64,000 nt of DNA from Eledone cirrhosa (lineage: Eukaryota), in assembly GCA_964016885.1 (NCBI GenBank), contig OZ024741.1, forward strand, positions 170,004,001 to 170,068,000, written 5' to 3'. The translations under genes were made by a program, and so were the position numbers. Positions 31,281 through 34,596 of this stretch are shown here, piece after piece. The notes under the pieces are model-generated. The model searched no databases and was not told the origin of the DNA. It saw only the letters and a program-made list of their open reading frames with translations. Position 1 is the stretch's first letter, and every line of letters starts with the position of its first letter.

Positions 31281-31393
31281 CACACACACACACGCACACT
31301 CACACACATATATATATATAAATAACAAAGAAGGTGTGGTAAATTACCAGGTGAACCAGAGTACTCGATACTTAGGGTAGTAGAGTGGGTAAT

Positions 31394-31515
31394 ATGAAAA
31401 GATTCAGGACCCCTACGGCTGAGCTCCGGCCGTTTCGACAGCTAGAACCGAACTAATTTTAGTCTGGATCTAGCTGTTGAAACGGCCGGAGTTTAGCCGT
31501 CGGGGTACTGACTCT

Positions 31516-31521
<6 letters not shown>
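31394..31521. repeat. Foldback inverted repeat beside (TA)n
   Basis: atgaaaagattcaggacccctacggctgagctccggccgtttcgacagctaga / tctagctgttgaaacggccggagtttagccgtcggggtactgactcttttcat. Confidence 0.88.
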
Positions 31522-31594
<73 letters not shown>

Positions 31595-31701
31595 TATAGT
31601 AATAATAATAAATTTGAAGACTAAAATCCAAAGGGGGCTCAATAAGGATAACTATATATCAAATATATAAGAACCGTAGAGCAAATATTTATTAAAATAA
31701 C

Positions 31702-31792
31702 AGATTAAAGTTTAAGCAAAGAATCGCTGCTTTCACCCTTAAGAAGATCCCGTTAAGGGTGAAAGCAGCGATTCTTTGCTTAAACTTTAATC
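31702..31792. repeat. Foldback inverted repeat; arm also present at 14929-14983
   Basis: agattaaagtttaagcaaagaatcgctgctttcacccttaa / ttaagggtgaaagcagcgattctttgcttaaactttaatct. Confidence 0.9.
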
Positions 31793-31850
31793 TATATATA
31801 TATATATACGATATATTAACAAATGGAAACTATATTTATAAAACCATATT

Positions 31851-31915
31851 TATTTCATTATACATATTTCAATGACACCAAGTTAAATTATGGTGTGCTT
31901 TCATCAGATAAAATA
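31851..31915 (-). ncRNA. Hammerhead ribozyme motif (minus arm)
   Basis: Reverse complement: tattttat-CTGATGA-aagc acacca taatttaact tggtgt catt-GAAA-tatgta-TA-atgaaata. Confidence 0.7.
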
Positions 31916-32005
31916 TAATATAGATCAGTTTTATAAATAAATATTGACATACCCTTAAAGAATGCGACCATTTCTGTTGGAAGCTCCTGGATATATTATA
32001 TATTA

Positions 32006-32070
32006 TATTTTATCTGATGAAAGCAGACCATAATTTAACATGGTGTCCTTGAAATATGTGTAATGAAATA
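32006..32070 (+). ncRNA. Hammerhead ribozyme motif (plus arm)
   Basis: tattttat-CTGATGA-aagcag accat aatttaac atggt gtcctt-GAAA-tatgtg-TA-atgaaata; 8-bp stem I. Confidence 0.7.
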
Positions 32071-33350
32071 AATATGGTTTTATAAATATAGTTTCCATTT
32101 GTTAATATATCGTATTTTTACTCCAATAATTTGTTGAGTGGTTTATATCAGTTATAAAAATATTTGCTTGTTGTATCCCAACGATTTAAATAGAACTTCT
32201 ACATATATATATATATATATATGTGCGTGTGTGTGTGTGTGTATATGATAACTAAAAACAATAGAGGCAAAACTTAAAAGTCGGAAAACATGGAGAGATA
32301 CGATGGCAGAGAATCGAACCTTGCTTCTCTCGTAAGCCTGCTGAGTGTATTAAATCATTATGTCTTTTACTGTCTCCAGGGTTACTTAACCCGATGACTA
32401 CATTTTCAAATATCAAATTTCTCACCACTTCGTAAAACAAACGGATGTTTATATCTATGTTATATGTAAGTCTGTACCACCCACCACACACACATATTCA
32501 CACCCAAGCTCATAAAGATATACACATATATGTACATAGCTATTATAGAATGATTGATTGTTTTCTCTATCGTAGATTTGTATTTAAGTTTCATAGTATA
32601 TAGTTACATATTTACCTTATGCTGTGGTAGTAGTTGAGACGATGATTATGATGATGGTGGTGATCGTGATGCTGGTGGTAGCGGTGGTGGTTTTAGTGAT
32701 GATGTGGTATGGACAGGCGGCGGTTTCGTTAGAGCTCATATTAGTGGTAGTATTGTTAGTGGTAGTTGAGAAGTTGCTTGTGCTGTGTGTAAATATGAAT
32801 ATCCCTCTGCATCCACCCTCCCTACCACATATCTGATGAAGAACAGATGCTATAAATTTCTATTACGGTGTTCTATACTTGCATGTTCATACTCACACCC
32901 ACACGCACATACTATAATGCATATTCAAGAAAAAAAATATATCGAGAATAGTCATATATATATTTGTTATATGAAAGTATGAAAGATAATTCGTAAAAGG
33001 CGTATGTCTCTCTTTCTCTATATCTCTTTGTATATATATATGTCCCACTTTTTGATGTCTGGCAAATAAAAAGAAAGTTATATATAATATTAAGGATACT
33101 ATTTATGGCTATGTATATACTAAAACTTTTTATAGTTATGTATATTTTAAACCCTAAACAGTGAAGGTCAGTAATTTATTACTACCTTATTACCAGTAAG
33201 ATAAATAGCTCAATGTAATGACATCAGTTGTTCTACAGAGCAGTTATATAGAATTCTATATATATATATAGAATTCTATATATCTATATATATATATAAT
33301 TATAATGAAATGACAGGAGGCTGGAGGTGTAAATCCTTGAAAGGTTTATT

Positions 33351-33408
33351 ATACTATGATCATTTCAATGACCGGGTTCCGTATGAATCCGGTGATATCA
33401 TCAGGTAT
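33351..33408 (-). ncRNA. Hammerhead ribozyme motif (minus arm)
   Basis: Exact reverse complement of 33788-33845. Confidence 0.78.
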
Positions 33409-33787
33409 TCGAAATATAATACGTGAATATAATAGATAAAATCATAGGGCTGAAAATCGAGGACCCGAGGGCGACCGCTATCTTGCACCCTCTACCTTAG
33501 CCGGTCGCCCTCGAGTGACGTGGCTAAAGCTCACAGTGTGCTACTACCGGTCAGATAAAGGAAAACAGAAAGGGATAGGAACATAAGTTACAAGACAAAA
33601 GAAAGATTTTATGTTCCCATCCCTTTCTGTTTTCCTTTATCTGACCGGTAGTAGCACACTGTGAGCTTTAGCCACGTCACTCGAGGGCGACCGGCTAAGG
33701 TAGAGGGTGCAAGATAGCGGTCGCCCTCGGGTCCTCGATTTTCAGCCCCATGGATTTTATCTATTACATTCACGTATTATATTTCGA

Positions 33788-33845
33788 ATACCTGATGATA
33801 TCACCGGATTCATACGGAACCCGGTCATTGAAATGATCATAGTAT
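33788..33845 (+). ncRNA. Hammerhead ribozyme motif (plus arm)
   Basis: atac-CTGATGA-tatc accgg attcatacggaac ccggt catt-GAAA-tgatca(palindrome)-TA-gtat, then AATAAA. Confidence 0.8.
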
Positions 33846-34102
33846 AATAAACCTTTCAAGGATTTACACAAATCCAGCCTCCTGTCATTTCATTATAATA
33901 TTTAACTCTGTAATAGCACCACCAACTACAAAAACAAAGACGGTTGAACTGCTTTACGTTGAGTACTCTCTATATTATTACAATACGGTTGACCATACGG
34001 AATAGACCAGCTCTATACAGTGGTGAACCTCAAACCTGAATATATATATATATATGTCTTTTCTTGTGAAAATGGGTATAGCTTTCATTATGTAAAATCT
34101 TC

Positions 34103-34170
<68 letters not shown>

Positions 34171-34216
34171 GTGAGGTTTTATTTAAAATAACCGAGGTGT
34201 CCTACACAAGTGAAAG

Positions 34217-34356
34217 TATAAAGAAAAAATGATGAAATCGAAAATTCAACTGGAGTCTTATTTTAAAAAAAATATAAGGAACCAAATAAATATATATATT
34301 TTTAAAAAAATAAGACTCCAGTTGCATTTTCGATTTCATCTTTTTTTCTTTATATA
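34217..34356. repeat. Foldback inverted repeat beside (TA)n
   Basis: tataaagaaaaaatgatgaaatcgaaaattcaactggagtcttattt / aaataagactccagttgcattttcgatttcatcttttttctttata. Confidence 0.85.
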
Positions 34357-34432
34357 TATATATATATAGTGGTGGAACACTGGAAGGTAATATCCGTAGT
34401 GGTAGAGCACTCAGTCCATGGGACGAGTTAGG

Positions 34433-34547
34433 TAGAAGTGGTTACACAACAGTTAGTTCACCATACCGAGAACAATTGTTTCACCTTAGCGGATCCTCAG
34501 CTCGTAATGGGCATGGTTATTATGTGAACTAACTGTTGTGTAACCAC

Positions 34548-34552
<5 letters not shown>
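34433..34552. repeat. 28-bp inverted arms enclosing a hammerhead
   Basis: tagaagtggttacacaacagttagttcac / gtgaactaactgttgtgtaaccacttcta. Confidence 0.88.
34461..34510 (-). ncRNA. Hammerhead ribozyme motif
   Basis: Reverse complement: ccattacgag-CTGAGGA-t cc gctaa gg t-GAAA-caattg(palindrome)-TT-ctcggtatgg. Confidence 0.72.

Positions 34553-34596
<44 letters not shown>

Follow-up and report, generated by a model that had tools for sequence, protein, structure and literature searches.

A dense stack of inverted, probably Penelope-like insertions in TA runs of the Eledone cirrhosa genome

The window analysed here is a stretch of 64,000 nt of the Eledone cirrhosa genome (GenBank assembly GCA_964016885.1, contig OZ024741.1, positions 170,004,001 to 170,068,000 of the forward strand). 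Between window positions 31340 and 34560, an initial annotation had reported six sequence-unrelated inverted repeats. Self-BLAST of the window found six fold-backs where they had been placed and no match between any two of them; we call the families A to F. Each cassette is a single copy of the 3' end of a different high-copy family. As argued below, the six hairpins very probably represent six separate retrotransposition events into (TA)n, each of them 5'-truncated and inverted. The features of the cluster are listed here; hammerheads marked "descriptor" matched a type-I pattern defined as core, helix II, GAAA, palindromic helix III, UH and helix I.

31325-31395, minus strand: one-sided tail of A, an extension of ~77 nt whose end also abuts (TA)n in 28 of the 29 other copies anchored on the tail
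31396-31519: head-to-head 3' ends of A, with a hammerhead-shaped relic (GAAA and palindrome, without catalytic core)
31520-31598: (TA)n, target and spacer
31600-31702, minus strand: unpaired end of the 3' body and tail of B
31703-31792: head-to-head 3' ends of B, a putative Hydra-type Penelope-like element (PLE), with a deviant hammerhead-like motif that is incomplete in the window copy
31806-32115 (fold-back 31809-32112): head-to-head 3' ends of C
31859-31907, minus strand: type-I hammerhead in the left arm of C, from core to cleavage site (descriptor)
32014-32062, plus strand: type-I hammerhead in the right arm of C (descriptor)
32116-32200, plus strand: one-sided tail of C
33078-33245, minus strand: short non-inverted 3' fragment of a seventh family, G, longer copies of which bear a hammerhead-like motif
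33299-33899: head-to-head 3' ends of D, a 2.28-kb tandem unit without an open reading frame (ORF)
33355-33404, minus strand: type-I hammerhead in the left arm of D (descriptor)
33792-33841, plus strand: type-I hammerhead in the right arm of D (descriptor)
33900-34039, plus strand: one-sided tail of D, 140 nt, which in tandem copies forms the beginning of the following unit
34056-34104: H, a fragment of an eighth repeat, between TA runs
34166-34218, minus strand: one-sided tail of E
34219-34350 (fold-back 34221-34350): head-to-head 3' ends of E, cut off downstream of the family's U3:A8-variant hammerhead
34369-34432, minus strand: one-sided tail of F
34433-34552 (fold-back 34435-34550): sense 3' end of F with a short inverted copy, the 3' untranslated region (UTR) of a putative Hydra-type PLE
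34471-34500, minus strand: type-I hammerhead in the loop of F (descriptor and fold)

The arms of the six hairpins are 85-100% identical (A, 53/62; B, 41/41; C, 113/117; D, 284/288 plus 3 gap positions; E, 53/58; F, 32/32 plus 1 gap). Four of the six pairs (A, C, D and E) carry substitutions between the arms. Most cassettes are set apart by TA runs, as the initial annotation had held, but the ~870 nt between C and D are other sequence. Every hairpin bears an unpaired extension, the tail, on one side only, and this tail reaches the next TA run. The fragments G and H inside the cluster are additions to the earlier description.

The same organization recurs at other loci. Copy sets were anchored on the tail (for F, on tail plus body), and long inversions are undercounted. 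The F query included the body and the short inverted arm, so the figures for F are biased; a tail-only F search found nothing. TA followed directly after the tail in 157 of 169 anchored copies, which bears out the idea that the families share (TA)n as a target. A fold-back was present in 92 of the 169, with TA at the inverted end in 86 of these. In all six families we saw copies truncated at the 5' side, with an inverted copy alongside and a tail at one end. The basic anatomy is (TA)n, inverted arm, sense arm, one tail, (TA)n. The 189 hairpins collected from all loci had 159 distinct apex pairs; one tail was present in 179, none in nine and both in one, and, as most of the sets were tail-anchored, the presence of at least one tail is by design. 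Variable apices and a one-sided tail point to separate insertion events rather than to a replicating class of hairpins. A fixed replicating hairpin in B, hinted at by the first set of B copies, was lost with the tail-anchored copies.

Short inverted repeats flanked by TA are also what foldback DNA transposons or miniature inverted-repeat transposable elements targeting TA would leave. Such elements have fixed symmetric terminal inverted repeats and a clonal interior, whereas the apices found here vary from copy to copy, tails are one-sided, 5' truncation is variable, long copies occur in non-inverted form and ORFs for reverse transcriptase (RT) and endonuclease lie upstream. This ORF linkage largely refutes the transposon explanation for B and F, and overall we consider it very improbable.

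A first look at the 3.0-Gb genome gave at least 3719 candidates for A, 462 for B, 596 for C, 2079 for D, 948 for E and 924 for F, each number being a minimum. We used 60 evenly spaced 10-kb stretches (600 kb) as a background sample. They contained 43 cassettes (0.072 per kb, or about one per 14 kb), 11 of them with both orientations. Extrapolation gives roughly 200,000 cassettes genome-wide, a rough figure in which long inverted copies count twice. The background stretches never held more than two families within 3.3 kb. Around the 169 anchored copies, other families occurred at 0.21 per kb against 0.072 per kb in the background, in line with the local clustering proposed earlier; 92 copies had no neighbour from another family, 63 had one, 13 had two and one had three. 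Of 103 neighbours, 24 were no more than 100 nt away, in most cases with nothing but TA in between; simple arithmetic predicts about two. The six families in the window are an extreme case of a widespread tendency of these elements to accumulate within one TA run.

These numbers also bear on assembly or library fold-back artefacts. The perfect identity of the B arms would fit such an origin, and contigs from four runs (one study, kind unknown) cover all repeat families deeply, with none spanning the whole stretch. However, the arms of A, C, D and E differ by substitutions, the one-sided-tail anatomy recurs at the 92 other loci with a fold-back, and both orientations are present in a quarter of the background cassettes (11/43). 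We give an artefact practically no credence.

Two of the families lead into protein-coding sequence. Copies of F continue unbroken upstream into an ORF that encodes thumb, CxCx5C linker and endonuclease. The Atlas look-alikes of this ORF score 0.95-0.97 and are eukaryotic where recorded, and in some look-alike clusters 22-28% of the members have GIY-YIG. Two copies of B, L172 and L314, lead into an RT that has DKT, followed by the CxCx5C linker and the endonuclease; DKT in place of DKG was seen in B (L314), and F copies do not reach that region. The translations of both families have the CxCx5C linker, no internal CCHH, and CxxC plus CxH near the end of the endonuclease. The B- and F-linked ORFs are disrupted and were translated frame by frame, and no locus examined reaches the full N-terminus, the place of the RWK motif. 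Judged by these translations, B and F are probably the 3' ends of endonuclease-positive (EN+) PLEs with Hydra-clade motifs, and the RT and endonuclease ORFs upstream of them uphold the Penelope-like origin suggested by the initial annotation. One of the background stretches, which were picked by position, contains a 4-kb head-to-head element of this putative Hydra type (B; L314:150-4460) with a long 3' UTR.

The other four families are different. D is a 2.28-kb head-to-tail unit, with no ORF and no PLE protein remnant in it, and a partial tandem that forms a pseudo-long terminal repeat (pseudo-LTR) was seen for it (L107). E has no credible protein remnant in 1.4 kb, and neither A nor C has a long copy among 29 tail-anchored loci each. 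A search for the parent of A with an exact pattern for its extended form found only the copy already known, at one place genome-wide. A, C, D and E can be non-autonomous members at most. The initial annotation had raised non-autonomy together with a separate class of ribozyme hairpins; the ORF-less long copies of D and E and the missing long copies of A and C agree with the former, and the latter was not supported. In two loci (L011:861-1500 and L209 upstream of 1279, both in element orientation) D and E meet, head to head, an ORF that belongs to another PLE and lies in antisense orientation; the one at L011 is GIY-YIG by Pfam (1/1), and the two junctions share the same short sequence. It is possible that this ORF hints at the autonomous partner of D and E.

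The arms do not begin at random positions in all families. The furthest 5' point of the cassette fell within one 8-nt bin in 24 of 29 copies of A, 17 of 29 of E, and 10 of 29 of both B and C (F, 6/24, query-biased). We excluded peaks at -130 in A and -154 in B as limits because they come at least partly from sister subfamilies that diverge from the reference there. The E limit lies 30 nt after TATAAAA, and the peaks of A and B are on the A of TTAGTT. A stretch upstream of the A limit, outside most copies, presumably resembles a tRNA A box. TTAGT is reported at initiator positions (PMC10695386), and the Penelope promoter lies within the pseudo-LTR (PMC2377424). The match of the fixed limits to initiator or TATA+30 positions suggests that they are likely the element's own RNA start. 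Counted from the tail end, the predicted starts would be at -140 in A, -160 in B, -211 in E and about -270 in C. An RT that sets out from the 5' pseudo-LTR would then run off where the transcript begins. In the portions of the open literature that we searched, we found no statement of such a pile-up of arm 5' ends, and to that extent it appears to be new.

These observations can be combined into a mechanism. A GIY-YIG-type endonuclease of the element would nick (TA)n, and reverse transcription would begin inside the RNA, at the tail end. If it started on the 5' pseudo-LTR of the transcript, it would run off at the transcript start after 140-270 nt; otherwise it would drop off at random. The end of the cDNA would then fold back and be copied on itself, and the second arm would be joined to TA at the body end, so that one arm alone would keep the tail. 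The TA left on both sides would stay a target for the same group of elements, and unrelated families would therefore pile up.

The source of the second arm can be approached through variants shared between arms. In A, the arms of one hairpin shared variants in 46 of 289 cases, against a shuffled-pair null with a mean of 0.03 and a maximum of 0.063; in C they did so in 80 of 204, against a null of 0.053 (maximum 0.129), and 11 were private. At L183:1330-1480, an E hairpin has ~120 nt of 28S rRNA at its apex, and both arms share one unique junction. This junction is at the predicted hammerhead cut site, but with microhomology to the rRNA piece. Variant sharing in A and C and the shared junction at L183 favour fold-back on a single cDNA. 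They speak against twin priming, in which the arms would derive from two RNAs primed on opposite strands of the self-complementary (TA)n and joined at their cDNA ends. Independent priming should also yield many hairpins with two tails, and we found one in 189. Twin priming draws support from purified PLE protein, which cuts and extends both strands and is a predicted dimer (PMC11167929), from the nine tailless hairpins and from hetero-junctions at L123 (E/A), L011 and L209. We regard it as unlikely. At L123:1280-1500 (element orientation), an antisense E arm is joined directly to a sense A arm near the usual 5' limits of both families.

Several results pull against fold-back insertion of six PLE-type families. 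The hetero-junctions just mentioned fit two templates or later deletion. In B, D, E and F the excess of shared variants was not above the shuffle maximum, and within-hairpin sharing could come from subfamily structure or gene conversion. D has no fixed 5' limit (4/29), the TATA-like box of C lies only about 21-23 nt upstream of its limit, which is a poor spacing, and the limits could be RT pause sites. As to identity, Pfam matched none of four Hydra-type protein pieces, and a search of solved structures gave no match for the RT. No ORF was found for A, C, D and E, and their assignment to PLEs therefore depends on anatomy and motif. In spite of these points, separate 5'-truncated, inverted insertions into (TA)n remain the reading that we favour for the six hairpins.

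On a more specific version we are tentative: the short hairpins are possibly complete copies of the first 140-270 nt of the element transcript, made by run-off at TATA or initiator, snap-back of the cDNA and resolution at TA. A may have turned into a 140-nt parasite of this route, resembling a short interspersed element (SINE).

The initial annotation had counted five complete hammerhead motifs in three of the cassettes. The descriptor found exactly five type-I motifs in 31340-34560, two in C, two in D and one in F. In 300 dinucleotide shuffles the mean was 0.01 and the maximum 1, and none reached five. The whole 64 kb contained one further strict motif, at 20343 (plus strand). An Rfam scan matched no hammerhead family; its only matches, to miRNA families, were hairpin-shape matches below the gathering scores and were rejected.

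C, D and F have canonical cores and a palindromic helix III. The window copies of A, B and E (3/6) lack a complete motif. Longer E copies carry a U3:A8 variant hammerhead, read by eye, and the window copy starts downstream of it. A and B fail the descriptor; they keep GAAA and the palindrome, with G at 16.1 in place of U16.1, and in A the catalytic core is absent. In copies of both families (e.g. L082 and L294) the palindrome is followed by GA and not by UH, and B also has A at core position 4. These features may reflect family-wide decay or a non-catalytic role.

Since the two motifs of one hairpin lie on opposite strands, a single transcript carries one ribozyme and its complement. In predicted folds of the C and D hairpins the probability that the catalytic core is unpaired was 0, and the ribozyme is therefore predicted to be inactive there; the F core was mostly unpaired. 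According to these models, the hammerheads would be passengers of the pseudo-LTR that are locked in duplex in two-arm hairpins. We also asked whether arms cut short at the predicted ribozyme cleavage site might prove cleavage in the genome, and rejected this: arm ends do not gather there. Arms starting at the predicted cut site numbered 0/127 in C, 0/80 in D (1 at the next base), 0/53 in F and 3/74 in E (1 at the next base). This agrees with the report, in the part of PMC11167929 considered here, that cleavage is not needed for insertion.

The motif data bear as well on a dedicated non-autonomous class, similar to retrozymes or SINEs, that would replicate as a ribozyme hairpin or short unit. 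It would be most plausible for A, which is nearly always ~140 nt: no A copy extends past 155 nt in the 29 tail-anchored loci, and the search that found extended A at a single place covered exact matches only. D, as an ORF-less 2.28-kb tandem unit, would also fit, and one B apex recurs 13 times in 41. That apex, however, was part of the query, and the tail was found with it on either arm. Furthermore, 48 distinct apices occur in 58 A hairpins, A has no catalytic core, the C and D cores are fully paired in the predicted hairpin, and retrozymes, by definition, consist of tandemly repeated units that each contain a hammerhead (10.64898/2026.07.22.740005). We consider such a class quite unlikely. 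The separate class of ribozyme hairpins proposed in the initial annotation is not supported, given apices that vary per copy, a tail on one arm, three of six cassettes without a motif and paired cores in C and D.

Much of the anatomy has precedents. Craig et al. (2021; PMC8557442) described the Hydra clade of C-terminal EN+ PLEs, and the supplement lists Hydra-1_Obim of Octopus bimaculoides, with (TA)n preference and a hammerhead; this is the cephalopod case that the initial annotation could not verify. They also listed the Hydra family Penelope-13_HM, to which an inverted and 5'-truncated copy is attached and in which either strand bears the motif, and called the formation of tandem and inverted PLE insertions undefined. 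Our families resemble the clade in the CxCx5C linker, CxxC plus CxH near the endonuclease end, DKT (in B), (TA)n insertion, and a hammerhead close to the 3' end that has one additional base ahead of helix II and a palindromic helix III. By eye, the motif sequence listed for Hydra-1_Obim is in none of the window motifs, and the window families are therefore other families. The tails here measure 60-140 nt as against 30-40, and most copies here are short remnants that lack an ORF and whose 5' limits are fixed, something that the passages considered from that paper do not mention.

Cervera and de la Pena (2014; PMC4209133) reported opposite-strand hammerhead pairs 100-700 bp apart and U3-A8 core covariation. 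The minimal hammerheads of metazoan PLEs share with ours the type-I form, the palindromic helix III, opposite-strand dual motifs and, in E, U3-A8. To this, the present data add motif counts per family together with insertion anatomy, and A and B with G for U16.1. Frangieh et al. (2024; PMC11167929) studied Poseidon, a PLE of Anolis, whose tail is explained by a pair of internal start sites for RT. Likenesses include a tail bracketed by RT start sites, an AT-rich target, both strands cut and extended, and a ribozyme dispensable for insertion; Poseidon belongs to another clade, and the portion covered does not treat the origin of inverted copies or fixed 5' ends. The Penelope elements of Adineta vaga (PMC3846280) have an inverted pseudo-LTR, a tail in some cases, palindromes at the inverted junction that were interpreted as self-priming, and TATA and initiator in the pseudo-LTR. 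Copies are few there, and the authors argue that an antisense RNA template would be required for self-priming, whereas our data fit fold-back of nascent cDNA. Published precedents thus exist for the truncated copy in inverted orientation, the tail on one side, insertion into (TA)n, hammerheads paired on opposite strands and a Hydra-clade element in an octopus. The anatomy as such is regarded as typical of PLEs (PMC8557442; PMC3846280).

Non-LTR retrozymes are likewise ORF-less, contain type-I hammerheads and derive from PLE pseudo-LTRs, and the D tandem unit works like one (10.64898/2026.07.22.740005). They are head-to-tail tandems, whereas the window cassettes are head-to-head single insertions and only D has a partial tandem elsewhere. 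The 2.28-kb D unit exceeds the 1000-nt period limit of the retrozyme search described in the covered part of that source.

Related sequences lie elsewhere in the window. Another B arm follows a TA run at 14912-15120 and is not inverted locally, and inverted-repeat structures adjoin TA runs at 5750-6528 and 61482-61899. A longer G copy at 5511-5730, between TA runs, bears a hammerhead-like motif with C at core position 4. The motif at 20343-20391 (plus strand) is canonical and hammerhead-like, and 20928-20977 (plus strand) has a core mismatch. Read by eye, long ORFs in 36460-56485 are presumably L1/Tx1-like and RTE- or R4-like long interspersed elements, and we take 18725-19330 to be a PLE-like remnant.

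The cluster is a dense stack of ordinary PLE insertions, namely new families of a known clade and probable non-autonomous relatives, and contains no new class of ribozyme hairpins. Taken as a class, this is unremarkable PLE debris. Its worth lies in the statistics, since it provides a large natural sample of how tandem and inverted PLE insertions form. Near-perfect hairpins, if transcribed inside genes, would be substrates of A-to-I editing. The fixed 5' limits, together with arms that appear to share a template, lead to a concrete model in which RT runs off at the transcript start and the cDNA then folds back. If this model is true, tens of thousands of scars would locate PLE promoters with single-base precision and preserve traces of an unresolved step in PLE transposition.

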